Origin: an uncultured bacterium
GTDB lineage: Bacteria; Krumholzibacteriota; Krumholzibacteriia; WVZY01; JAKEHA01
DNA length: 64,000 nt
Direction: 5' to 3'
NCBI GenBank assembly: GCA_965371015.1
Contig: CBDUWU010000001.1
Location: 1,368-65,367 of the forward strand
The notes under the pieces were generated by a model. That model made no database searches. It saw only the letters and a list, made by a program, of their open reading frames with translations, and was not told where the DNA came from. Positions 7,551 to 56,234 of this stretch are shown here, piece after piece. The first letter of the stretch is position 1. Each line of letters opens with the position of its first letter. The translations under genes were made by a program, and so were the position numbers.

Positions 7551-7582
7551 GTCCCGCCCGGGCGCTGACGAGAACAAAAAAA

Positions 7583-7610
7583 GGACCGGTTCACACCGGT
7601 CCTTTTTTTT
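7583..7610. terminator. bidirectional rho-independent terminator shared by the convergent ABC operon and the ferredoxin gene
   Basis: GGACCGGT-tcac-ACCGGTCC perfect 8-bp stem followed by T8, and preceded by A7 on the other side. Confidence 0.75.
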
Positions 7611-10974: not shown

Positions 10975-11065
10975 GGAGAGATGCGAGAGCTGGCTTAATC
11001 GGCACGACTGGAAATCGTGTGTATGCGGAAGTGTACCGAGGGTTCGAATCCCTCTCTCTCCGCCA
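10975..11065 (+). tRNA. tRNA-Ser (anticodon GGA), class II with long variable arm
   Basis: GGAGAGA/TCTCTCC acceptor stem, anticodon loop CTGGAAA, T-loop GGTTCGAATCC, 3' GCCA. Confidence 0.85.
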
Positions 11066-11192
11066 TCCATTTATCCCGCGAAACGCCACGCGGGGACTCA
11101 CCCCGACGTGACTCCAAACCCCTTCCGCCCGATTCAGCCGTAACCGCATTTGCGGTCTTGCCCTCCCCCGCTCGATCCGCTATCATTCCCGC

Positions 11193-11282
11193 GGAGAGAT
11201 GCCAGAGCGGTTGAATGGGGCGGTCTCGAAAACCGTTGAGTGCGCAAGTGCTCCGGGGGTTCGAATCCCCCTCTCTCCGCCA
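11193..11282 (+). tRNA. tRNA-Ser (anticodon CGA)
   Basis: near-identical to E. coli tRNA-Ser(CGA): GGAGAGATGCC...GGTCTCGAAAACC...GGGGGTTCGAATCCCCCTCTCTCCGCCA. Confidence 0.85.
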
Positions 11283-11308
11283 TTTTTTTGATATTACCGG
11301 AATACGGT

Positions 11309-11384
11309 GGGGATGTAGCTCAGTTGGGAGAGCACCTCGTTCGCAACGAGGGGGCCGGCGGTTCGAGTCCGCTCATCTCCACCA
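11309..11384 (+). tRNA. tRNA-Ala (anticodon CGC)
   Basis: GGGGATGTAGCTCAGTTGGGAGAGC; G3-U70 Ala identity pair; anticodon loop TTCGCAA; encoded CCA. Confidence 0.85.
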
Positions 11385-11410
11385 TTTGAAATCTGACGCA
11401 GAACTGTTAA

Positions 11411-11692
11411 AGAGATCGTGCTAGACGGGGTGTTAGCGGTACCCTCTTCCCGCAATCCGCTATAGCGGGGTCGAATTCCCTCCCGCGGGCGACCGGGGTC
11501 GATGTTCACGATCGTGGAAGTGGCGTCGATGGTCAGGTCCCGCGCAATGGTCACCCACGAACCCCGTCAGGACCGGAAGGTAGCAGCGGTAACTGGATCT
11601 GATCATGTGATGCGGGGTCACCTGTCCGGAGTTAACCCGCGGTCGTGTCACGGGTCCGGCGTTCAACGGTGGGTGCACGATCTCTTTTTTTT
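11411..11692 (+). ncRNA. ffs: signal recognition particle RNA, large Bacillus-type (~275 nt), with U-tract terminator
   Basis: domain IV motif GTCAGGACCGGAAGGTAGCAGCGGTAA at 11566-11592 (about 20/22 match to bacterial GUCAGGUCCGGAAGGAAGCAGC); 5' AGAGATCGTGC (11411-11421) is exactly complementary to 3' GCACGATCTCT (11675-11685), giving a terminal helix followed by T8; sits immediately upstream of dnaX as in Bacillus. Confidence 0.6.
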
Positions 11693-19515: not shown

Positions 19516-20157
19516 ATGCCCGATAACGTCATCGAGTTGAAACCGCGCCCCCGGGGACGGGTCACCGTCAAACTCGCCGGGGGGCGGTTTTTTACCATAC
19601 CGCAGGACGCCGTGACGTTCACCGTCGCCGCGGTGGTGTCGGACGAAGACGTATCCAGGTTCGACCGGATGGACCAGTACTTTCGTGGAAAAGACAAGGC
19701 GCACCTTTTGATTTCGCGGCGGATGCGGACGCGGAAACAGGTCGCCGACGCGCTCGACAAGCTGGCCATAGAGGCATCGATACGAAACGGCATCCTGACC
19801 GAGCTCGAAGAAACGGGACTCATCGACGATCTCCGTTTTGCCGGCGAATACGTCCGGATCAAGAGGGACGTAAGGCGGCACGGGCCTTACCGGTTGCGTC
19901 ACGATCTCGGACGCATGGGGGTGACGGGGTCGATCGTCGAGCGCGTTCTGGAAGAGACGTTCGACGTCCCGACACAGGAATCGATGGCACGGGAGCTGGC
20001 CGAGACGCGCGCCGCCGGCTGCCCCGTCGACGAAAAGGCCGCGCGGCGTATCGGCGATTTTCTCAGGCGCAGGGGTTTCGATTACGAGGTCGTGAATAAC
20101 GTGGTCTACGACCTTCTCCACCATTCAAACGTTTCGGACAATGACTACGAATCCTGA
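19516..20157 (+). CDS. recX: regulatory protein RecX
   Basis: immediately follows recA (stop/start abut); 213 aa, helical repeat protein in the conserved recA-recX-alaS arrangement. Confidence 0.75.
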   Translation: MPDNVIELKPRPRGRVTVKLAGGRFFTIPQDAVTFTVAAVVSDEDVSRFDRMDQYFRGKDKAHLLISRRMRTRKQVADALDKLAIEASIRNGILTELEETGLIDDLRFAGEYVRIKRDVRRHGPYRLRHDLGRMGVTGSIVERVLEETFDVPTQESMARELAETRAAGCPVDEKAARRIGDFLRRRGFDYEVVNNVVYDLLHHSNVSDNDYES

Positions 20158-30285: not shown

Positions 30286-33123
30286 GTGACCGCACTGGTT
30301 TGCTTTCTGATCGCTTTCGGAGTGTCGTATCTGGGCACCCTCGGGCTGCTGCGCATCCCCATGGTGAGGGGCTTTATCGACGTTCCCAACGAGCGAAGTT
30401 CGCACGAGGCGCCCAAATCCAGGATCGGCGGCGTTGCCATCGTGGTCTCGTTCTACGCGGCGCTCGTGTGGTTGTGGGTGTCACAACCGGAGACTCGGGT
30501 ATTTATGCCGCTGGCCGTCGGGTCCGCGATGCTGTTTCTCACCGGCCTGATCGATGACTGGCGCGGGCTCGGCGTAAAAATCAAGTTTGCCATGCAGATC
30601 GTCGCGGCGATTACGGTAGTGTCGTTCGGGGTCTCGATCGACCACATATACATACCGGCCGCCGGGAGCGTGGAACTGGGCTGGACCGGTATTCCGATCA
30701 CCGTTCTGTTCATCGTCGGAAGCATTAACTTCTACAACTTCATAGACGGTATCGACGGGCTGGCCGCGGGCAGCGCGTTTATCGCGGCGGGGTTTCTGGC
30801 GCTGATCTCCATGACGCTGGGGCACTCGGCACTCGCGCTGGTACTTGTCGCGGCAGCCGGCAGTTCCATCGGCTTTTTACAGTTCAATTTTCCCCCGTCA
30901 AAATTGTTCATGGGTGACAGCGGAAGCACATTTCTCGGCTTCTTTTTTGCGTATACCGCCGTCGCGGCCAACGGGCTGACGCCCGAGCTTCCGGTGTTCA
31001 TTCCGGTTCTGATCCTGTCGTCGCTCTACCTCGACGCGGGGTTGACCCTGTTCAACCGCCTGATCAAGCGTGAAAACATATTCAAAGCGCACCATACTCA
31101 CTATTACCAGAGGCTCCTCTCGCTCGGGTTGAATCACAAACAGGTCACGCTGCTCGAGTACCTGGTGCTCATCCTTCTTGGTGTAAGCGCTGTCGTTTAC
31201 TTCAAGGCGGGCGAGTATTTTCCCGTGTTTATAAGCGCGTGCTGGATCACGCTTTTTACGCTGGCCATTTTGAAGATCCGTGGCCTGGAACGCGGCGACA
31301 AGCTGTTCTGGGAAAAGCGCACTTTGTTCGTCATCGGCCTCGATCTGGTACTGATCACGGTGGCGTACCTGGGTGCGTATTTCATGAGGATGAATTTCCG
31401 CTTCACCGATCCGGAAGGCACGGCGGTTCTGCGCGCGCTTCCGATCGTGCTGATCGTTCGAAGCGCCGTGTTCCACAAACTGGGCTTGTACCGGAGCGTG
31501 TACAAGTACACGAGCACGGCGGACATCGTGCGAATACTCAAGGCGGTCACGATGGGGTCGGCCATCATTCTGACCACCGTTGTCCTGCTCTACCGTTTTG
31601 TCTCGTTTCCGAGAACGCTGTTCATAATCGAATTTTTTCTGCTGACGCTGCTCATCCTCGGGTCGAGATTCTCTTTCCGCCTGTTCCACGAGATCGGCAA
31701 GGAAGCGCACGGCGCCAACGTGAAGCGATACGGGATTGTCGGCGCTGGAGACTTCGGAGAACGGGTCGCGCGCGAGCTGCGTAACGACAGCACCCGGACG
31801 ACAGTGGTGTCCTGTTTTATCGACGACGCCCCGGGCAAGATCGGGATGACGCTGCACGGAGCGCCGATCGTGGGGCCGGTCGACACCCTGGAGGCGATCG
31901 TGGCGAAGTACAAACTGGACGCGATCGTCGTGGGAATCGCCCGTCTCGACCAATACAGGATGGAACAGATTGCCGGGGCTGCCCGGGCCGCGGGGGTGGC
32001 GCTGGAGGGCCGTCAGAGCTCGTTGAAAAAGGATCCCGTTCGACCGGACGAGTTGTTCGAGAAGCTCGCACACGGGATCGGAAGGACCCGCGCCTGCGAC
32101 GTGGGGACGCCGTCCCGCGTATTTTATCGCGGCAAACGTGTGCTGCTCACCGGCGGCGGCGGACCATCCGGCCCGGCGTTAGCCCGCAAGCTGTCTGAAC
32201 TCGGCGCGGTGGTAACCGTGCAGACCGATTCGCCTCACGACGCCAGCAGATTCAACGCGGACCTGCGGAAGGACGTGTTCGTCCACATGGGACCGCCGGT
32301 GGGACCCGAAGGCTGGAAGAGCCTCTTCGACTCCGCCCGGCCCGACGTGGTGTTCTACTGCCTTGCCCTCGAAGTGCCGGCCGACTCGTACTCGGAGTCC
32401 TTCCTGTGGCACGCTTCGGTTTCGACGACGGTGGACCTGATGTCCGCCGTTGCCGGCTCGAGCGTATCTTCACTCGTGATGGTTTCGAATCGTGGAGCTG
32501 GGGCGCAACGAACCGCCGCGGATGCGGCTGCGGTCGCCGAAGCCATATTGCTCAACGGTGTGCTCCCGGACACTGTCGTACCACAGGTGATCCGATTGCC
32601 CCGGGTACTGGATTCGGGCGATCTCCTCGACGTGTTCAACGCGTGGTCGGGCGCAGCGCCGGGCCCAGACACCGGATACGACGTGCTCGAGCCCGAAGCA
32701 GTGGCGGTCGTGCTTGACACCGCGGCTTCCGGCCCGGGTCGCGTCATTGTCGTGCCCCAGTGGAGCGGTTCGTTTTCGGCGGTGGACGCGGAATCGATCC
32801 TCAACGGCAGGCCGGGCCCCGGAAGGACGGATCAATGGGATCGCATCGATCGCAACGCAGGCCCGTTGTATCCGGCTGAAGCCATCGCGGGGCCCCCGAC
32901 ACCGGGTGCGATACGATCGGTCGCCGGGGTCGCCGTCGTGACCCCCCTCTGTCCCGCCGATGAAACCGTCGCGGCCGCCCTGGCCAGCGACCCGCCCGAC
33001 GCCACCGGGGACGAGCGGATCAGGTGGATGGAAGCGGCGACTGCGTCGCTGTATCGTGACTCGGCCTCCGGCGCTGATACCGCCCCTGAGGCGGACTCCA
33101 CCCGCGAGAAGGAGCGGTTGTGA
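30286..33123 (+). CDS. fusion protein: polyprenyl-phosphate sugar-1-phosphate transferase (WecA/MraY GT4 family) + CapD/WbpM-like membrane/Rossmann region with degenerate SDR domain + Ala/Pro-rich C-terminal tail
   Basis: aa 1-330 carry the MraY/WecA motifs DDWRGL, NFIDGIDGLA, MGDSGSTFLGF; aa 340-470 have four more TM helices followed by YGIVGAGDFGERVAREL, as in CapD/PglF; aa 560-760 contain VLLTGGGGPSGPALARKL but no clear Y-x3-K catalytic motif. Confidence 0.75.
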   Translation: MTALVCFLIAFGVSYLGTLGLLRIPMVRGFIDVPNERSSHEAPKSRIGGVAIVVSFYAALVWLWVSQPETRVFMPLAVGSAMLFLTGLIDDWRGLGVKIKFAMQIVAAITVVSFGVSIDHIYIPAAGSVELGWTGIPITVLFIVGSINFYNFIDGIDGLAAGSAFIAAGFLALISMTLGHSALALVLVAAAGSSIGFLQFNFPPSKLFMGDSGSTFLGFFFAYTAVAANGLTPELPVFIPVLILSSLYLDAGLTLFNRLIKRENIFKAHHTHYYQRLLSLGLNHKQVTLLEYLVLILLGVSAVVYFKAGEYFPVFISACWITLFTLAILKIRGLERGDKLFWEKRTLFVIGLDLVLITVAYLGAYFMRMNFRFTDPEGTAVLRALPIVLIVRSAVFHKLGLYRSVYKYTSTADIVRILKAVTMGSAIILTTVVLLYRFVSFPRTLFIIEFFLLTLLILGSRFSFRLFHEIGKEAHGANVKRYGIVGAGDFGERVARELRNDSTRTTVVSCFIDDAPGKIGMTLHGAPIVGPVDTLEAIVAKYKLDAIVVGIARLDQYRMEQIAGAARAAGVALEGRQSSLKKDPVRPDELFEKLAHGIGRTRACDVGTPSRVFYRGKRVLLTGGGGPSGPALARKLSELGAVVTVQTDSPHDASRFNADLRKDVFVHMGPPVGPEGWKSLFDSARPDVVFYCLALEVPADSYSESFLWHASVSTTVDLMSAVAGSSVSSLVMVSNRGAGAQRTAADAAAVAEAILLNGVLPDTVVPQVIRLPRVLDSGDLLDVFNAWSGAAPGPDTGYDVLEPEAVAVVLDTAASGPGRVIVVPQWSGSFSAVDAESILNGRPGPGRTDQWDRIDRNAGPLYPAEAIAGPPTPGAIRSVAGVAVVTPLCPADETVAAALASDPPDATGDERIRWMEAATASLYRDSASGADTAPEADSTREKERL

Positions 33124-34013
33124 AACAGTTCTTCTTTGTACTTCAGTCGATGCGGCCCGGCCAGTGGACCAAAAACCTCGTGGTGTTTGCCGGACTCGTC
33201 TTCTCGCAAAACCTTTTTGATCGCCAGCTCGCCGCCAAGAGCGTCGAAGCTTTTGTCGTGTTCTGCCTGTTGTCGGGGATGATCTATCTCGTCAACGACA
33301 TAGCCGATATCGAGCGTGACAAGCTCCACGCCCGCAAGAAGCACCGTGCGCTGCCCTCCGGGCGCCTCAAACTATCGACGGCGGTGGTTGCGTCGATCGT
33401 CGGAACACTGGCCGGCCTCTATCTCGCCTGGCTGGTTGGGCGCGAGTTTTTTGTCGTCGCCGTCGTGTTCTTTGCGTTGAACATGCTATACTCGTTCGTC
33501 ATCAAGCGTATTGTGCTTCTCGACGTGATGAGCATTTCGATCAGTTTCATACTGCGCGCGATCGGGGGAGTGGAAGCCCTGCGCAGTCTGGAGCCGTCGA
33601 TCGAGATATCGCCTTGGCTCTTGATCTGCACCCTGTTCCTTTCCCTGTTTCTCGGGTTCTGCAAACGACGGCACGAGCTGGTCACCCTGTCCAACGCCCA
33701 CCAGCACCGGCGGTCTCTGCGGGAATATTCGCCGGCGCTGCTCGACCAACTCGTTGGAATCACCGCAGGCGGGTCAGTGCTCGCGTACGCGATATACACA
33801 ATCTGGCCCGACACCGTGGACAATTTCGGCTCGACGGACCTGGTTTATACAGTGCCGCTGGTTCTGCTCGGCGTCATGCGCTACCTTTACCTGGTCTACA
33901 CCCAGCAGAAGGGCGGAAGCCCCTCCGAGCTCCTCCTCCACGAGAAATTCCTGCTGGTCACGGTTGTCACGTGGGGCGCTCTGGTGATTGTGTTGTTGGG
34001 TGGATTCAGGTAA
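33120..34013 (+). CDS. UbiA-family prenyltransferase, decaprenyl-phosphate phosphoribosyltransferase (DPPR synthase)-like
   Basis: RPGQWTKNLVVFAGLVFS and YLVNDIADIERDKLHARKKHRALPSG resemble Rv3806c-type DPPR synthases (from memory); 8-9 TM helices. Confidence 0.7.
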   Translation: MKQFFFVLQSMRPGQWTKNLVVFAGLVFSQNLFDRQLAAKSVEAFVVFCLLSGMIYLVNDIADIERDKLHARKKHRALPSGRLKLSTAVVASIVGTLAGLYLAWLVGREFFVVAVVFFALNMLYSFVIKRIVLLDVMSISISFILRAIGGVEALRSLEPSIEISPWLLICTLFLSLFLGFCKRRHELVTLSNAHQHRRSLREYSPALLDQLVGITAGGSVLAYAIYTIWPDTVDNFGSTDLVYTVPLVLLGVMRYLYLVYTQQKGGSPSELLLHEKFLLVTVVTWGALVIVLLGGFR

Positions 34014-34021
34014 AATCATCA

Positions 34022-34038
34022 CCCCCCCCCCGGGGGGG
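34022..34038. repeat. C10-G7 homopolymer pair (self-complementary) in the UbiA-DUF362 intergenic region
   Basis: atcaCCCCCCCCCCGGGGGGGattcac located 9 nt after the UbiA stop and ~25 nt before the DUF362 RBS. Confidence 0.9.
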
Positions 34039-34072
34039 ATTCACACCATCTTGTAAACGAGCGAGGAGATCA

Positions 34073-35179
34073 ATGGCATCCAGAGTAGCCGTTTTGTTCA
34101 CGACTCCCGAGACCGTCCTTGCGGACTACCAGAAAGTAATGGAGCTGGCGTGCTGGACAGAGACGCTCACGGGGGAGAGGGAACTACTCCTTAAGTTGAA
34201 CCTCTCCTGGACAAAGTATTTCCCCTCGTGTTCCAGTCAGCCGTGGCAGGTGGAAGGCGTCGTAAAGACGCTTCTGGAGGGGCACTACACGCCGGAGACG
34301 GTGATTCCCGTCGAGAACAAAACCGTAGTGACCAATCCCCGAAAGGGGGCCAGGAACAACCTGTGGATGCCCGTGCTGGACGAGTACGGGTGCCGTTTCC
34401 AACCGCTGACAGAGATCGAGTGGAAGGTTCACCGCTTCGAGGCGGATCTACTGAAACTCAATGACATCTTTCCCGAGGGCATCGAGATCCCGTCGATCTA
34501 CGAGGGCAGAGACATTCTGCACCTGCCGACGGTGAAGACCCACGGACATTCCATCACCACAGGCGCGATCAAGAACGCGTTCGGGGGATTACTCAAGGAA
34601 GTGCGGCACTACGCCCACAAATATATTCACGAATTAATGGTCGAGCTGCTGCTGCTGCCGCGCGAGCTTCAGCCCACCGTGGTCGCCTTTAGGGCCGGCA
34701 CGGGGGCCGGCGCCGGCGCCGGGCCCCGGACGATGATCCCGAGGATTCAGAATGTCATCCTGGCCAGTTCCGACTCGGTTGCGATCGACGCGGTGGCGGC
34801 GAAAATGATGGGGTACGACCCGTTGGAAATTCCGTATCTGCGCATGGCAACGGAGATGGGTCTGGGTGAAGGCCGAATCGGGCACATCGAGATCGCGGGG
34901 GAACCGATCGACAATATCAACTTTCACTTCCAGACCCGGAAAAGTCTGGTGATCTGGGGCGACCAGATGTTGCGTCTGGGCCCGCTGCGGTTCCTGGAGA
35001 AGTTGTTACTCCACTCACCGCTCATGGTGTGGGCGCCTTTCGCGTCGAACGTGTATCACGACTACATGTGGTACCCGACGGTCGGCGCCAGACGCATCCG
35101 GGAGTTCTCACGCACCCCCTGGGGCGAGTTGTTCGAACGGTATAAGAAATTACCACGAAACGAACCGGACGGCGGTTGA
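34073..35179 (+). CDS. DUF362-like protein (uncharacterised, Fe-S-cluster-associated family)
   Basis: 368 aa; GGAG RBS 5 nt upstream; family call from memory of DUF362; internal low-complexity AGTGAGAGAGP. Confidence 0.5.
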   Translation: MASRVAVLFTTPETVLADYQKVMELACWTETLTGERELLLKLNLSWTKYFPSCSSQPWQVEGVVKTLLEGHYTPETVIPVENKTVVTNPRKGARNNLWMPVLDEYGCRFQPLTEIEWKVHRFEADLLKLNDIFPEGIEIPSIYEGRDILHLPTVKTHGHSITTGAIKNAFGGLLKEVRHYAHKYIHELMVELLLLPRELQPTVVAFRAGTGAGAGAGPRTMIPRIQNVILASSDSVAIDAVAAKMMGYDPLEIPYLRMATEMGLGEGRIGHIEIAGEPIDNINFHFQTRKSLVIWGDQMLRLGPLRFLEKLLLHSPLMVWAPFASNVYHDYMWYPTVGARRIREFSRTPWGELFERYKKLPRNEPDGG

Positions 35180-35182
35180 GTC

Positions 35183-36091
35183 ATGCCCCTGAACGCCTCA
35201 CGAGCTCGAAACGTACGCGCCATAACGCGGGCGAAGGTCAACCTTTCTCTCGAGGTCATCCGGCGCCGGGGCGACGGCTTCCACGAGATCGAAACGATCT
35301 TCCAGTCGATCAGTATGGCGGACGAACTTGATATCAAGTGGAACGGCGATGGAGTGATCGAGATTTCGTGCTCCGATCCGGGCATTCCGGTCGATGCGAC
35401 TAACCTCTGCCACCGGGCCATAGCGGCGATGCGCCGTCACGCCGGGGAGGATCTCGGAGCGCGGATCCACATAGAAAAGCGGATTCCGTCTTCGGCCGGC
35501 CTCGGGGGCGGCAGCGCCAACGCCGCCGGAGTGATTCTCGCCGTGGACCAGGCGCTGAAACTGCGGCTCCCCGTGGGGAAACTCGAGGCCGTGGCAGCAG
35601 GGCTCGGTAGTGATATTCCATTTATGCTCCACGGAGGGACAATGCTCGGGCGTGGCAGGGGCGAAATACTGACCCGGCTCGACGAAATGAAAGAGTGTTA
35701 TTTCACTATAGTGAAACCCCCGGTAAGTATTTCGACAGCTTGGGTTTATGAGAATATCAATTTGGCGTTGACAAAGCACAAGCCGCGGATTAACCTGAGA
35801 ACGGTAAATGCCGTTCTGGCAAGGTTTCCCGGGGTTACTGCGTCGTTCCGGAACGCGTTGGAAGATGTTGTTTGCCCGACCCATCCGGTCGTCTCCGGGA
35901 TCCTGGACGAATTGCTGGCGACGCGGCCGAGTTTTGCCTCGATGTCGGGAAGCGGCTCTGCTCTGTACGCCATTTATGACAACGAAGCGCAAGCAGTCGA
36001 GACAGCTGAGCGGTTTTCGGTGAAAGAGTTCTTTTGCTCTGTAGCCACTCCAGCGAAGCGAGCGGTAGAAATCTCTGAATTAGAGGGATGA
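35183..36091 (+). CDS. ispE: 4-diphosphocytidyl-2-C-methyl-D-erythritol kinase
   Basis: KVNLSLEV N-terminal motif, GHMP kinase motif IPSSAGLGGGSANAA. Confidence 0.85.
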   Translation: MPLNASRARNVRAITRAKVNLSLEVIRRRGDGFHEIETIFQSISMADELDIKWNGDGVIEISCSDPGIPVDATNLCHRAIAAMRRHAGEDLGARIHIEKRIPSSAGLGGGSANAAGVILAVDQALKLRLPVGKLEAVAAGLGSDIPFMLHGGTMLGRGRGEILTRLDEMKECYFTIVKPPVSISTAWVYENINLALTKHKPRINLRTVNAVLARFPGVTASFRNALEDVVCPTHPVVSGILDELLATRPSFASMSGSGSALYAIYDNEAQAVETAERFSVKEFFCSVATPAKRAVEISELEG

Positions 36092-36126
36092 GTTCGCGGA
36101 CGAGGACGCTCAAAAGGGGGAGCTCG

Positions 36127-36414
36127 ATGAATATCACCGAAGTAAGGATTTCTCTCAGAGACGACGCCAAGCTCAAGGCGTTCGCGAGTATCACGCTGGA
36201 CAACTGCTTTGTTGTCCGCGGGCTCAAGATTATCGAAGGAAAAACCGGCACTTTCATTGCCATGCCGAGTCGCAAGCGCAAGGATGGCGAGTACCAGGAT
36301 ATCGCCCATCCGATCAATAACGACGCCCGGGCGGTCATGGAGAGGGTCATCCTCAAGGCCTACAGGGAGGAAGTCGAGAGTAGCGCGGTAACACAACCTC
36401 CCGACGCCGAATGA
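36127..36414 (+). CDS. spoVG: septation protein SpoVG
   Basis: MNITEVRISLRDDAKLKAFASITLDNCFVVRGLKIIEGKTGTFIAMPSRK highly SpoVG-like; 95 aa. Confidence 0.85.
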   Translation: MNITEVRISLRDDAKLKAFASITLDNCFVVRGLKIIEGKTGTFIAMPSRKRKDGEYQDIAHPINNDARAVMERVILKAYREEVESSAVTQPPDAE

Positions 36415-36470: not shown

Positions 36471-36544
36471 TGGGGCGTCGACAAGTGGTAAGTCACAGGG
36501 TTTTGGTCCCTGCATCGGGGGTTCGAATCCTCCCGCCCCAACCA
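36471..36544 (+). tRNA. tRNA-Gln (anticodon TTG)
   Basis: U1-A72 acceptor pair (TGGGGCG/CGCCCCA), anticodon loop TTTTGGT, T-loop GGTTCGAATCC, encoded CCA. Confidence 0.8.
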
Positions 36545-43102: not shown

Positions 43103-44902
43103 ATGAAATCAACGATCCGCCTTCTTGTTCCGGTCATCGCGGCGGTCCTCGTCGCTCTTCTCTTCGGCGCATGTTCGACGGCGAACAAGAGCGCCGCTAC
43201 CCTCGATGAAGAATCCCGTACCCATGCGGCCAACCTGTTCGCCCGGGTGAAGACCGAGAAGGCGGCGGGGAACCTCGACGCGGCGGCGGCTTCCGCGCAG
43301 GAGCTGATAAACAACTACCCGGGGTTCGCCCGTGCGGACGAAGCGATCTATCTGGCCGGGGAGGTCGCATTTGAGGGTGGACAGTACGACCAGGCGGCCT
43401 CTTACTTCGACGCGGTCGCCGAAAAATACCCGCTGAGTGCATACCGGGCGCCATCGGACCTGTCGGCCGCCCGCGCGTACGCGCGTCTGGAGATGTACGC
43501 CAGGAGCGCGGAGATTCTGGTTCGTCTTCTCGATTCTCCAATCGATGAGGAAATGCGCGCGGCCGCTGAAACGGAATTAGCGGAACTGGTCGCGCGACGG
43601 TTGAGCCCGACGGAAATGGAAGCGCTCGCGAAAAACTACCCCTCTTCGCCGGTCAACCGCGATATTGCCGTGTCGCTCGCCAGATTCGAATACGCCAACG
43701 CCAATTACGATGCCGCGTACGATCTGCTCGCGGAGTTCCTCTACCGGTTTCCCGAGCAGACTGATGTGGCCGAGGCGAGGCGCCTGCTCAAACTCGCCGC
43801 GGAGAAGAGGCAACCGCCCGCCGGCGTGGAAGACGGTGCCGGCCCCCCCCCCGGAATCGTCGAGCCGAACACGATCGGCGCGATTCTGCCGGTGACGGGA
43901 CCGGGACAGATGTCTCTGTTTGCCCGGTATTTCGGTGACGGGTGCCGAAAGGCCGTCGATGAATTCAACGAAACGAGCAGCCGCAAGGTCTCGCTGGTAA
44001 CGGCGGACACGAAGGGATCCGCCGTTGGGGCGGTCAAGTCGGTCAGAAAGCTCGTCCTCGAGGACGGGGCTATCGCCCTCATCGGCGCGGTATTCACCAT
44101 GCCTACCATCACGGCGGCTATCGAGGCCAACGCATGGCAGGTGCCGATGCTCTCGCCGCTCGTCTCGACGGACGACCTGCTCGAGATTGGACCGTGGATC
44201 TTCGAGACAAAAGTGCCCCGTGCGGTCGAGGTGTCGGCCGTTGCCGATCTGGCAGTTTCGCGGTTGCTGTTCGAGAGGATCGCCGTTGTATCGCCCGACG
44301 CCGGACGCTACCGCGACGCCGCCGACCTGTTCGCCGACGAGGTGGTTCGTCTCGGTGCCGAGGTGATTGAGCGCACGCATTACGAGAGCGGAGCAACCGA
44401 CTTCCGCGAACAGCTCGAGGCGGTACGCGACGCTGCCCCCGACGCGATTTTCATCAGCGGAGATTATAAGGAGCTGCTCAATTTGTTGCCGCAGGTCAAG
44501 TTCTACGATCTGCAGGTACAGCTGCTCGGGCTGAGCAACTGGAACAACGATAACTTGCTGAGGCTGTTCAGGGGAGAGCTGGAAGGGGCGTTGTTCCCTC
44601 TGGAAACTTACCGTGGCAAAGACCCGGAGGTGTACGACCGCCTGAAGATGTCGCTCGGGAAAGAAGAAAAAAGCGAGGTCAACTCCGTGATAGTCGCTGG
44701 TTATTTCGGTATGCGTCTGCTGCTCGAATCACTCGGAGCCGGTGCGTCCGATCGCGGAGAGGTCCGCGAGTATCTCGACGGCGTGCTCAGCCAGAAGGCC
44801 GAAAATCGCATGGCCGAGGCTGCAGCGCTCACGATACTCACCGTCCGGTCGGGGAAGGCGGTGGAGTTCACGCCTCCCCCGCGTCCCGGGACCGATTTTT
44901 GA
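43103..44902 (+). CDS. lipoprotein with N-terminal TPR region and C-terminal periplasmic-binding-protein type I (LivJ-like) domain; LpoA-like architecture
   Basis: lipobox LLFGACS; TPR-like helical N-half; C-half IGAILPVTGPG...LIGAVFTMP resembles type I PBP fold; matches domain order of PBP1A activator LpoA. Confidence 0.55.
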   Translation: MKSTIRLLVPVIAAVLVALLFGACSTANKSAATLDEESRTHAANLFARVKTEKAAGNLDAAAASAQELINNYPGFARADEAIYLAGEVAFEGGQYDQAASYFDAVAEKYPLSAYRAPSDLSAARAYARLEMYARSAEILVRLLDSPIDEEMRAAAETELAELVARRLSPTEMEALAKNYPSSPVNRDIAVSLARFEYANANYDAAYDLLAEFLYRFPEQTDVAEARRLLKLAAEKRQPPAGVEDGAGPPPGIVEPNTIGAILPVTGPGQMSLFARYFGDGCRKAVDEFNETSSRKVSLVTADTKGSAVGAVKSVRKLVLEDGAIALIGAVFTMPTITAAIEANAWQVPMLSPLVSTDDLLEIGPWIFETKVPRAVEVSAVADLAVSRLLFERIAVVSPDAGRYRDAADLFADEVVRLGAEVIERTHYESGATDFREQLEAVRDAAPDAIFISGDYKELLNLLPQVKFYDLQVQLLGLSNWNNDNLLRLFRGELEGALFPLETYRGKDPEVYDRLKMSLGKEEKSEVNSVIVAGYFGMRLLLESLGAGASDRGEVREYLDGVLSQKAENRMAEAAALTILTVRSGKAVEFTPPPRPGTDF

Positions 44903-51260: not shown

Positions 51261-54200
51261 TTGAATCTCCGCAAGCTACAGATATTCGGGTTCAAGTCTT
51301 TTATGTCCCGCCTGGAACTCGATTTTTCACCCGGGATCACAGCTATCCTCGGACCCAACGGGTGCGGCAAGTCGAACGTTGTCGACGCCATCCGCTGGGT
51401 GCTCGGCGAACAGCGCACCCGTCTGCTGCGTAATACCAAGATGGAAAACGTCCTGTTCAACGGCACGCGTCTCCGCAAGCCGCTGGGTATGGCCGAGGTC
51501 TACATGACGCTTTCCAACGAGGACCACGGTCTTTCGGTCGATTACGAGGAAGTGACGATCGGCCGCAAGTTGTACCGGAGCGGAGTCAGCGAATACACGC
51601 TGAACAACGAGCCCACCCGGCTCAAGACGATTAAAAACCTGCTTGTCGACACAGGGTTGGGCAACAACGCCTACGCGATCATCGAGCGCGATATGGTGGA
51701 CAAGGTTCTCAGCGAGAAGGAACAGGAAAAACGCAATCTGCTGGAAGAAGCCGCGGGTGTGATGCGGTACCGGATCCAGCGGGAAGAAGCTGAGCGCAAG
51801 ATCAAGTTGACCGAGCAGGACCTCCTCCGTCTCGGTGATATCATACAGGAACTCGACAAGGAGATCCGGTCGCTGAAATACCAGATGGCCAAGGCCCGCC
51901 GTTACGTACGGCTGAGGGACAAGTCCAACGAAATGGAAGCGGTACTCCTCAAGGCGACGCTTTACGACCTGCTCATACGCGAGGACGAACTGAACAAGGA
52001 ACGCGAGCGGCACGAGGGAATCCGCCTCGCCGACGACAACGAAATCTCCACGCGCGAAAACAGGCTGCAGGAAAGGCGGATTGAGTCATCGGAGCAGGAA
52101 CACTCGCTTCAGGGGCTGCGTGAGACCCGGTACAACGTCAGCAGTAACCTCCAGCAGCACGAGGAAAAGATCGCCGTTCACACGGAGAGGGTCAACAGCA
52201 GCCGCGGCCGGATTGTCGAGGATCGCGCCGAAATCGACCGGGCGCGCGAGAAGCTCCACAATCTGGCCAGCGACCTCGAACGCTACAACAACGAAGTGGG
52301 CGGGCGCGGAAACCGGCTCGAGACCCTTCGCGAGGAACTCTCAACGCAAGAGGAATCATTGCGCTCGGTGTCCAGGCGTCTCGACGAAGCCCGAAAGGAC
52401 TTGCGGGAGAAGAAACAACTGGCTCTGAATCTGGTCGAGGCGAAGGCCAGGGAGGAAGGGCTCGTCGAGCATCTCGAGTCGACGCTGACCGAGCTGGAGG
52501 GCAAACGCGAGTCGATCGAGAATCAAGTCTCGGACCTGTCGGAGGAAGAATCCCGAAGGGTATCGGAACTCGGCGAGGTGGAACACAGGTTCAACGAAGC
52601 CGGCCGGCAGCTCGACAGCAGGCGTGATGATTCGAGAAAATTCACCTCGGAGCTGGACCGCCTGGCGGAAGAAACTGCGTCCTGCGAGAAAGCGCTTTCC
52701 GAAGCAGTTCGCAACCAGACCAAACTACGCGAAAAAAAGGAATTCCTGGACAAAATCAAGCGGGAACACACCCGCTGGTCTGACGATACTCTGGGAGCGC
52801 ACGAAGGGTTGAGCGGAGTCCTCTCGGACTTCGTGCACGTGGACAAGGAATACCGCAAGTGTTTCGAAGCCTGTCTCGCGCCCGTGCTCAACGGCGTCGT
52901 GGCCCGCTCCCGCGAAGACGCCGTCGTGTGCATTCGTGAATTCGTCGCCGCCGACAGCGGTCGTGTCCAGATACTGATTTCCCTGTCGGATCCGGACGCC
53001 GCCCCCCCGGGGGGCGAGACGGTCAGCGGCGAGGGGATCGTCGGGCCCGCTTCGTCGCTCGCCAGGTTCGACAAAAGCATCGAAGCCTATATGCGTTCGT
53101 ATCTGTCCGGCGTGGTGGTGGTGGAGGACACCGACGCGGCGCTCGATGTGATCGAGAGCGGCCGGGTGGCGCGAGTCGTAACGCTCGACGGTGTGTTTTT
53201 CGACGGACCGGCGCGTATTATCGTCGCCGGCTCGGATGACGTGGAAACCACGCTTCTCGATTACGACGCCAAACTGACCGAACTCTCGGCGGGCCTCGAG
53301 CACCTCGAAGGCGCGGGGCGTGAGTTGGAGCAGCTGCGCGACTCCCTCGCCCGTGACCGCGAGAGAGTTCAACGGGATGTCGCCGAGGCGCGCACGACGA
53401 TCGCCGCGCAGGAGCAGGCGGTCGAGTCGTTGCGCGGTACGCGGCGCGACCGGGAGTTGGCCGTCGTTCGGGTCAAGGAAAAGATCACGTCGGCCGAATC
53501 CGCTCTGGCGGAAAACGGGGAATCGGTATCAGCCGTAAAAATCCGGCTGGAGGCCACGACGAATCGTCCGAACAGCGGTGCTGCCGCGAATGCGGGCGCC
53601 GGCGACGTGGATGACGTAGATGTGGCGCGGACCGAAGAACTGACCCTCGACCTCGAACGCGAAAAGGAATTGCTGGCCGAGTCGGTCGGAAGGCTGAAGC
53701 TCGAGAACGTCTCGGTGTCGGGAGAAGTGGACACGCTTCAGACCAAGATTCGCAACGCGGAAAAACTCGACGAGGAGCTCAAGCAGTTGATGCAGGCGCG
53801 GAAAGAAGACGAAACGCGGTGCCAGGAACAGATCACGGTGAGCGAAGAGGACGTTGCGAGTCTCCGGTCGGGCATTTCGGGCCTCCACGCGGAAAAAGAA
53901 ACGGTCGAGCGGGAGATCGAACAGATCAGCGAAGCCCACGAGGAAACCAAACGAGAGTGCGACGAACTGGAAAAAGAGCTTAAGCAGATGAAAGACCAGC
54001 GCGACGCCAAACGCGAGAACCTCGAACGAGTCAGCGTCGAGACGGCGTCGCTGGAAACCCGAGTCTCCGGTCTGCTGGAAAAAGCCGAGGAGAATTTCGA
54101 TCAGGACCTTCGGCCATACCTGAAGAACCGGGAGTTGTTCGACCCCTCAGAATGGGAAAACTTCAACCGCGAGGCGCTGTCGCAGCTCAAGGCCAAGGTC

Positions 54201-55803: not shown

Positions 55804-55902
55804 ATGCCCCGGGTCCGGTACTGTCGTCCCCCTCGGCACCGGTGGCTGGGCCGGGTGGCGTAGGGAGTTAGTATAAAAGTAGTTATGGGTTGTGTAGGTC
55901 CT

Positions 55903-55931
55903 TGACATTCCCTTCACAAAGGCGTATCGTC
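55903..55931 (+). promoter_or_regulatory. candidate promoter TTGACA-17-TATCGT for the riboflavin operon
   Basis: TTGACA 55903-55908, TATCGT 55926-55931, ~8 nt before riboswitch P1. Confidence 0.3.
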
Positions 55932-55939
55932 ATCATATG

Positions 55940-56059
<120 letters not shown>

Positions 56060-56234
56060 TCATGGCAGGCGTACACGGCGCGCCCCTTTCCGGGGGCGGT
56101 GCAGGTTGACGTCCCCTCGGGGATGTCCGCCGGCTTATATATCCCTGTATTCTCCCTCGATTTCCCCCGATCGTTACCGGTAAAAGCCGCACAACTTGTA
56201 ATACGACCACGCGCCGGCCCCGACGCCGGCCGAT

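Follow-up and report, generated by a model that had tools for sequence, protein, structure and literature searches.

A GC-only hairpin at a predicted internal promoter between UbiA-family and DUF362 genes of an uncultured bacterium

Stem-loops at the 5′ end are described stabilisers of bacterial mRNA. Protection of mRNA by 5′-terminal base pairing was reportedly the finding of Emory, Bouvet and Belasco and of Bouvet and Belasco, both in 1992. It is established for ompA and papA (reviewed in PMC3997798). We examined a tract of ten C residues followed by seven G residues (C10G7), located between the genes for a UbiA-family prenyltransferase and a DUF362-family protein in 64,000 nucleotides (nt) of DNA from an uncultured bacterium (GenBank assembly GCA_965371015.1, contig CBDUWU010000001.1, positions 1,368 to 65,367 of the forward strand; this whole stretch is called the window, and all coordinates are window positions). 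The tract resembles the stabilising leaders of Escherichia coli ompA and papA and of Bacillus subtilis aprE and ermC in being a stable hairpin near the 5′ end, upstream of the Shine-Dalgarno (SD) sequence, of an mRNA with its own promoter, which here is predicted. It differs from them in that its transcription start site is a prediction only, its stem is a pure C/G homopolymer pair, and it belongs to one shallow clade.

Three other kinds of element invite comparison. Intrinsic terminators and leader attenuators share with the tract a GC-rich stem-loop a few nt after a stop codon, but the tract has no coding-strand U-tract and no antiterminator, and it lies downstream of a promoter −10 element. 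The phase-variable poly-C/poly-G tracts in the contingency loci of Neisseria, Haemophilus and Campylobacter are likewise homopolymers of some 10 nt close to the start of genes that have a link to surface polysaccharide synthesis; the tract, however, is neither in an open reading frame (ORF) nor in a −35/−10 spacer, similar runs stand intact in essential genes, and no difference in length is seen among assemblies that share a haplotype. Repetitive extragenic palindrome (REP)-like elements occur in multiple copies, which is not the case for the tract in the 64-kb window. For the flanking genes the closest described system is the mycobacterial decaprenyl-phospho-arabinose pathway, which comprises the UbiA-type decaprenylphosphoryl-phosphoribose (DPPR) synthase Rv3806c, the phosphatase Rv3807c and the DprE1/DprE2 epimerase.

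The hairpin and the promoter at the end of UbiA

The tract may be the 5′-terminal stem-loop of a DUF362-ispE-spoVG transcript, made from a predicted internal promoter, that protects this transcript against decay dependent on its 5′ end; we give this tentative reading a probability of about 0.4. It starts from the hairpin itself, the matched arms that it keeps in the close clade, a promoter motif that is conserved, and the distance between promoters and starts elsewhere in this genome. A sigma-70-type promoter, TTGTGT-N17-TAAAAT, placed in the last UbiA codons and the stop codon, would start an mRNA carrying DUF362, ispE and spoVG, and perhaps tRNA-Gln, prs, L25 and pth, and would make expression of the DUF362-ispE genes independent of the polysaccharide cluster upstream. 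The all-G/C stem-loop would then form the extreme 5′ end of that mRNA, with few or no unpaired 5′ nt, and would shield it from the RppH / RNase E / RNase J route. In kind, such an element is ordinary: a leader or intercistronic GC stem-loop of a known type.

UbiA occupies 33120..34013 on the + strand (stop codon TAA, 34011-34013), and DUF362, of 368 amino acids, occupies 34073..35179 on the same strand, with its ATG at 34073 (34074 is out of frame). Between them the sequence bears out the preliminary description of a C10G7 tract ahead of the DUF362 ribosome-binding site, with C10 at 34022-34031 and G7 at 34032-34038 (+ strand), the exact lengths resting on one contig. Positions 34010-34075 of the + strand read GTAAAATCATCA-C10-G7-ATTCACACC...GAGGAGATCAATG, and the junction stretch can also be written GGTAAAATCATCA-CCCCCCCCCC-GGGGGGG-ATTCACACCATCTTGTAAACGAGCGAGGAGATCAATG. 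As RNA the tract folds into seven G-C pairs (5′ arm 34022-34028, 3′ arm 34032-34038) around a CCC loop (34029-34031), at −15.5 kcal/mol. The stem-loop begins 8 nt past the UbiA stop; its 3′ flank on the + strand, ATTCACACCATC, is not U-rich and holds no U-tract, so the earlier claim of a very stable hairpin without a U-tract stands. The SD sequence of DUF362, GAGGAG, follows at 34063-34068 (+ strand), within an AACGAG(C)GAGGA block kept in relatives. The row is otherwise tightly packed, as had been said: the tract lies in the only sizeable gap, and neighbouring genes overlap or lie 3 nt apart (WecA/CapD-UbiA, 4-nt overlap; DUF362-ispE, 3-nt gap; ispE-spoVG, 4-nt overlap).

Dinucleotide-preserving shuffles of the window give an expectation of 0.04 for the pattern C7-N3-G7 with at most one mismatch, so the tract exceeds chance. 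The folding z-score of the 101-nt tract region is unremarkable (0.38); because such shuffles retain CC/GG content, the significance of the tract rests on the pattern test together with conservation. A search of 33800-34300 against Rfam at permissive thresholds gave only sub-threshold noise.

The predicted −35 element, TTGTGT, lies at 33988..33993 (+ strand) inside Ile-Val codons of UbiA, and the predicted −10 element, TAAAAT, at 34011..34016 (+ strand), beginning with the UbiA stop codon. Phylum labels of relatives, Latescibacterota included, are taken from the record titles of the homologues. Of 23 distinct Latescibacterota junctions, 22 have a TTGnnn-N17/18-TAnnnT motif where UbiA ends, against an expected background of 0.007 per site; these junctions span orthologous positions in loci L001-L009, L081-L091 and L161-L175, along with 33988-34016 of the window, and the 23rd has TATAAC in place of TAnnnT. 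The TAnnnT hexamer of the 22 begins at the UbiA stop or 3-4 nt past it, and the −35/−10 distance is unchanged also in junctions whose stop is displaced by one codon (3 nt). Downstream of the −10 element the spacers are otherwise unalignable among Latescibacterota junctions. Every sequence supplies the TT of the −35 element with an ATT or GTT codon (Ile/Val), codons that make up 19% of Ile and 14% of Val codons in the window, which indicates that the T of the −35 element, at a synonymous site, is kept against codon bias. With TTGnnn and TAnnnT 16-18 nt apart at orthologous positions, the site has the form of a sigma-70-type promoter, and the comparison makes it a well-supported predicted example, in an uncultured phylum, of a promoter that lies within the 3′-terminal part of a coding gene.

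Two other RNA genes of the window bear on the start site. A flavin mononucleotide (FMN) riboswitch (RF00050, 117 bits; within 55902-56062) has its first base at 55937, exactly 7 nt after the −10 element of TTGACA-N17-TATCGT, and the tRNA at 11193 starts 7 nt after a TTGCCC-N17-TATCAT site. Since these tool-predicted sites end exactly 7 nt before the riboswitch and the tRNA, the genome evidently uses sigma-70-like promoters, and the same 7-nt rule applied to TAAAAT gives a predicted +1 of about 34023, which is the run's second C, next to the hairpin start at 34022. Because the conserved promoter motif overlaps the UbiA stop, the tract lies at the predicted start of a transcript and not in mid-transcript.

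We collected 175 loci from genome and metagenome scans and from look-ups of close cluster members. A clade of at least 90% identity comprises four junction haplotypes: TAAAAT-CATCA-C10G7-ATTCAC in the window, with 59 nt from the UbiA stop to the ATG; TAAAAT-AATCAG-C5-GCC-G5-ATTCAC in L001, L173 and L174, with a spacer of 57 nt; TAAAAT-CATCAGTCAA-C4-GCC-G4-ATTCGC in L166-L169, with 58 nt; and TAAAAT-CATCAGCT-C6G6-TAACCAC in L170, L171, L172 and L175, also with 58 nt. In each of the four a perfect hairpin of G-C pairs alone has arms of equal length (7/7, 5/5, 4/4 and 6/6) and starts 5-10 nt after the −10 element, in the three related haplotypes 0-4 nt after the predicted +1. As the arms match in all four while the spacer is held at 57-59 nt, the arm lengths have changed together. 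Each of the relatives' three haplotypes recurs identically in 2-4 independent samples or assemblies, and the hairpin is thus a real, inherited trait of this shallow clade. The window's own haplotype is known from one contig; exact-sequence look-ups of the window UbiA and DUF362 proteins, P0001 and P0130 returned no contig on record. A chimeric assembly at the tract was considered and rejected, synteny and flanks matching relatives on either side.

Comparison of the same junction in related genomes, a check named in the preliminary description, gave a divided answer: close relatives keep a shorter hairpin, but those at 72-86% identity retain the gene order without the tract, some of them having unrelated GC hairpins, such as CCGGCCG-GGTGG-CGGCCGG in L161. 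Several such observations weigh against a stabilising role. The promoter motif is kept and the 5′ hairpin absent in L164, L165, L003 and L081, so that the arrangement can do without the hairpin, and the predicted leaders of the 72-86% relatives fold no better than shuffles. All stem pairs are C-G, and the four haplotypes therefore show co-variation of arm length only, with none at the level of bases. In L088 a hairpin and then TTTTT follow the −10 motif, a misfit with a simple stabiliser model. The window −35 element agrees with the consensus at 3 of 6 positions, and the site is unlisted by a consensus promoter scan. Firing of the promoter and its exact start are predictions, and the stabilising effect is what we infer.

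Five loci (L088, L084, L086, L087 and L009) have UbiA-DUF362 spacers of 96-212 nt, in which long, GC-rich and highly structured leaders follow the −10 motif. A regulatory role is conceivable for them, as is an origin as inserted palindromic elements. The idea that 5′ hairpins are a general rule of Latescibacterota leaders was rejected: about half have one, and none is better than shuffles.

Competing readings and the quality of the contig

The most probable alternative, which we still consider unlikely, is that the tract has no dedicated function and is a small lineage-specific GC palindrome drifting in a part of the leader that is not critical, with errors of base calling or assembly inflating its length here. 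A sequence such as G-C6-GCC-G7, which has the G-Cn-GCC-Gn architecture of the family, could be the true one; two G>C changes turn it into exactly C10G7. This reading draws on an anomalous patch in the same contig, about 600 nt downstream of the tract in a GGC-rich stretch inside DUF362 (34634..34726, + strand). The patch holds 12 private transversions in 93 nt (A>C five times, T>G three times, G>T twice, C>G and G>C once each), giving 12 amino-acid changes within DUF362 residues 188-214, D208A and D214A among them. They strike the most conserved stretch of the family, ...HKYIHEVMVDLLLMQRELHPNVFAVMDGTVAGDGAGPRTM..., from which no other cluster member and no relative of 73-86% identity departs. 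Outside these 12 positions the protein P0130 of an independent assembly agrees with the window DUF362 at all 356 residues. Over the 5.1 kb compared there are 28 further private substitutions, mostly transitions, and control sequences never show more than 3 private substitutions per 60 columns.

The patch is probably a sequencing, base-calling or assembly error; if it were real, this copy of DUF362 would likely be crippled. In two-colour chemistry, loss-of-signal errors (A>C, T>G, C>G) would fit most of the changes in the patch. GGC motifs and inverted repeats are known triggers of sequence-specific Illumina miscalls (PMC3141275). A diversity-generating retroelement was rejected as the cause, since A and T on both strands as well as G and C are changed, and the location, a catalytic-looking core and not a C-terminal variable region, also contradicts it.

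Because the tract is itself an inverted repeat on a single contig with an error-like patch, the exact C10 and G7 lengths are doubtful. The hairpin is secure even if its length here is not, given that every clade haplotype carries one. More distant relatives do live without it, as drift would allow; the perfect hairpin in four of four haplotypes, three of them repeated across assemblies, speaks against drift, and arm lengths that are always equal are unexpected from drift alone.

Rather improbable also, in our estimate, is a role at the 3′ end of the upstream polysaccharide operon, where the hairpin would be a weak U-less terminator or pause site, or a barrier to 3′ exonucleases on UbiA read-through transcripts. 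It would there uncouple the mRNA of the UbiA cluster from DUF362-ispE, like REP-type or 'selective RNA processing and stabilisation' elements. The tract follows immediately on the last gene of the 11-kb polysaccharide cluster and is of high stability, several relatives have other GC-rich hairpins in this spacer (that of L088 with a T-run), and there is a published account of intergenic stem-loops that set operon stoichiometry (PMC4423207). It also has the GC-rich stem-loop of an intrinsic terminator. The + strand, however, lacks the U-tract found at the canonical terminators of the window. One of these, AAAAAAAGGACCGG...CCGGTCCTTTTTTT at 7576-7609, is bidirectional with A7 and T7 flanks, and the other, after recA, has a hairpin and TTTTTT at 19574-19593 (region 19548-19593); as both carry T-tracts, the genome evidently uses canonical U-tract terminators. 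Moreover, an efficient terminator downstream of the conserved −10 element would stop the internal promoter's own transcripts, the hairpin is missing in several relatives of the same gene order, and the 64-kb window has no further intergenic copy, other CnGm tracts being coding or in the recA terminator. A 3′-end role is compatible with a 5′-terminal stem-loop, and one hairpin could serve both transcripts. A terminator scan lists the tract site on the − strand only; this call was rejected, since no gene on the − strand runs into the site and the supposed 'T-tract' is merely the −10 box in complement.

The preliminary description had offered two regulatory roles for the tract, and both are unlikely. 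Against an attenuator that uncouples DUF362 stand the predicted promoter upstream of the hairpin, the missing U-tract and the canonical terminators elsewhere in the genome; folding gave no competing or antiterminator structure around the tract, and only the 8 nt between the UbiA stop and the stem would be available.

The second role, as a phase-variable spacer, belongs to a reading that we think very improbable, in which replication slippage of the C10 run, or cytidine triphosphate (CTP)-sensitive reiterative transcription, switches or tunes DUF362-ispE. That the run is long enough to slip holds for C10 as assembled, which exceeds about 8 nt and lies inside the length range of slippage-prone tracts, although the length itself is uncertain. 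Tract length varies between haplotypes (17, 13, 12 and 11 nt), reiterative transcription would be mechanistically possible if +1 lay inside the C run, and, as a conceivable link, ispE of this operon acts on a substrate whose synthesis uses CTP. However, lying between the −10 element and the SD sequence, the tract sets neither a reading frame nor the −35/−10 spacing, and its length has no obvious on/off effect. The haplotypes differ largely by substitutions at constant spacer length, each shorter version is identical in 2-4 independent samples, and the relatives' C runs are only 4-6 nt long and start 2-5 nt past the predicted +1.

Nor are long C/G runs switches in themselves, being tolerated in intact, essential ORFs of the same genome: alaS contains both a G9 run (21323) and a C5G9 tract (21537), while GPPPG in another ORF is encoded by a C10 run at 43843 and APPGGE by a C7G6 tract at 53002, all with the ORF intact. 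The tract at 34022 is the sole long C/G run in a spacer of the window.

As improbable as a slippage switch is a near-palindromic operator at +1 bound by a dimeric repressor of the internal promoter: the tract overlaps the predicted start, and in the window and L170 (C6G6) its form is palindromic, but the Cn-GCC-Gn versions of L001 and L166 break the palindrome at the centre, half-sites range from 4 to 7 in length, and the window annotation has no regulator gene next to the tract or junction.

Runs of at least four C followed by at least four G occur nine times in the window (1464, 12951, 19548, 21537, 34022, 45849, 48699, 53002 and 60759) and the reverse order once (32889); most of these tracts are coding (Pro-Gly).

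The gene row

UbiA is the final gene of the 11-kb co-directional polysaccharide cluster. The + strand row leading to it consists of alaS, a Wza-like exporter, a sugar nucleotidyltransferase, GT1, an NAD-epimerase, an AsnB-like gene and a WecA/CapD fusion; from DUF362 onward it continues with ispE, spoVG, tRNA-Gln, prs, L25, pth and S6. Packed directly behind DUF362 are ispE (35183-36091, + strand; Pfam GHMP kinase match) and spoVG (36088-36414, + strand; Pfam SpoVG match). The same gene order is found in L002-L009, L161 and L164. The tRNA-Gln gene (anticodon TTG, 36471-36544) lies in the 170-nt gap between spoVG and prs, amid an otherwise protein-coding ispE-spoVG-prs-L25-pth row. Elsewhere in the window, three tRNA genes stand in a row within 10975-11680, with a fourth ahead of them at 10975-11062, followed by a large-type bacterial signal recognition particle RNA (RF01854, 195 bits).

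The UbiA-DUF362 pair

The identities given earlier for the two genes hold: UbiA matches PF01040 and DUF362 matches PF04015. Against NCBIfam NF008977 (decaprenyl-phosphate phosphoribosyltransferase) UbiA scores 258.6 bits, above the equivalog cut-off of 234, and by this score it is assigned to the DPPR-synthase type. The locus is thereby like the mycobacterial pathway, and prs, which supplies phosphoribosyl pyrophosphate, lies 2.5 kb downstream. Unlike in mycobacteria, no DprE1/DprE2 or PAP2 phosphatase genes were seen beside the window pair, which instead has a conserved DUF362.

The suggestion that the gene pair is a functional clue proved stronger than first stated. In 101 of 166 loci, drawn from many phyla, the gene immediately before this DUF362 subfamily is UbiA; Latescibacterota, Acidobacteriota (Vicinamibacterales, Aminicenantes, Polarisedimenticolia), 'Deltaproteobacteria'/Binatia, Rokubacteriota/Methylomirabilota and Armatimonadota are among them. 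Of 67 distinct junctions from non-Latescibacterota loci (L012-L080, L092-L160), 41 have the DUF362 ATG at −4 to +4 nt relative to the UbiA stop, in the forms TAAATG, TGATG and ATGA; judged by this spacing, the two genes are translationally coupled there. Because other phyla couple the pair without a spacer, the combination of spacer, promoter and hairpin appears to be a Latescibacterota arrangement, found where housekeeping genes follow DUF362. In Zixibacteria-type loci UbiA is not adjacent, and DUF362 neighbours a polysaccharide deacetylase and a CpsD-like chain-length kinase. With either UbiA or these genes beside it, the subfamily is consistently tied to envelope-polysaccharide genes.

This DUF362 subfamily is unusually conserved, at 60-68% identity between phyla; homologues 60-92% identical to the window protein occur across Latescibacterota, Acidobacteriota, Rokubacteriota, Armatimonadota, Planctomycetota and others. 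On the genomic evidence, the phylum-spanning link between a DPPR-synthase-like prenyltransferase and this highly conserved subfamily is strong. DUF362 and the N-domain of the LarA racemase belong to the same Pfam clan (PMC11770544). A search of PDB sequences with the DUF362 protein and its profile gave no match. An AlphaFold model of the protein (predicted local distance difference test score, pLDDT, 65; predicted template modelling score, pTM, 0.72) has LarA-family racemases as its best Foldseek matches in the PDB, and these are weak (E 2e-3, template modelling score about 0.3). It is conceivable, if improbable, that DUF362 is a partner enzyme modifying the polyprenyl-phospho-pentose made by UbiA, possibly a LarA-like single-protein 2′-epimerase that replaces DprE1/DprE2.

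Taken alone, the tract amounts to a leader or intercistronic hairpin of a routine kind, whose homopolymer form may be partly a sequencing artefact, and it is not worth pursuing as a switch. The embedded promoter, as predicted, splits what appears to be a single operon into two, and the link to UbiA gives DUF362 a concrete context in the synthesis of lipid-linked pentose or envelope glycan. Were DUF362 the partner enzyme of UbiA, it would help to make a lipid-linked arabinose-type donor for the envelope polysaccharides of many uncultured phyla, and the tract would then matter only within the rewiring of DUF362 to a housekeeping promoter in Latescibacterota.

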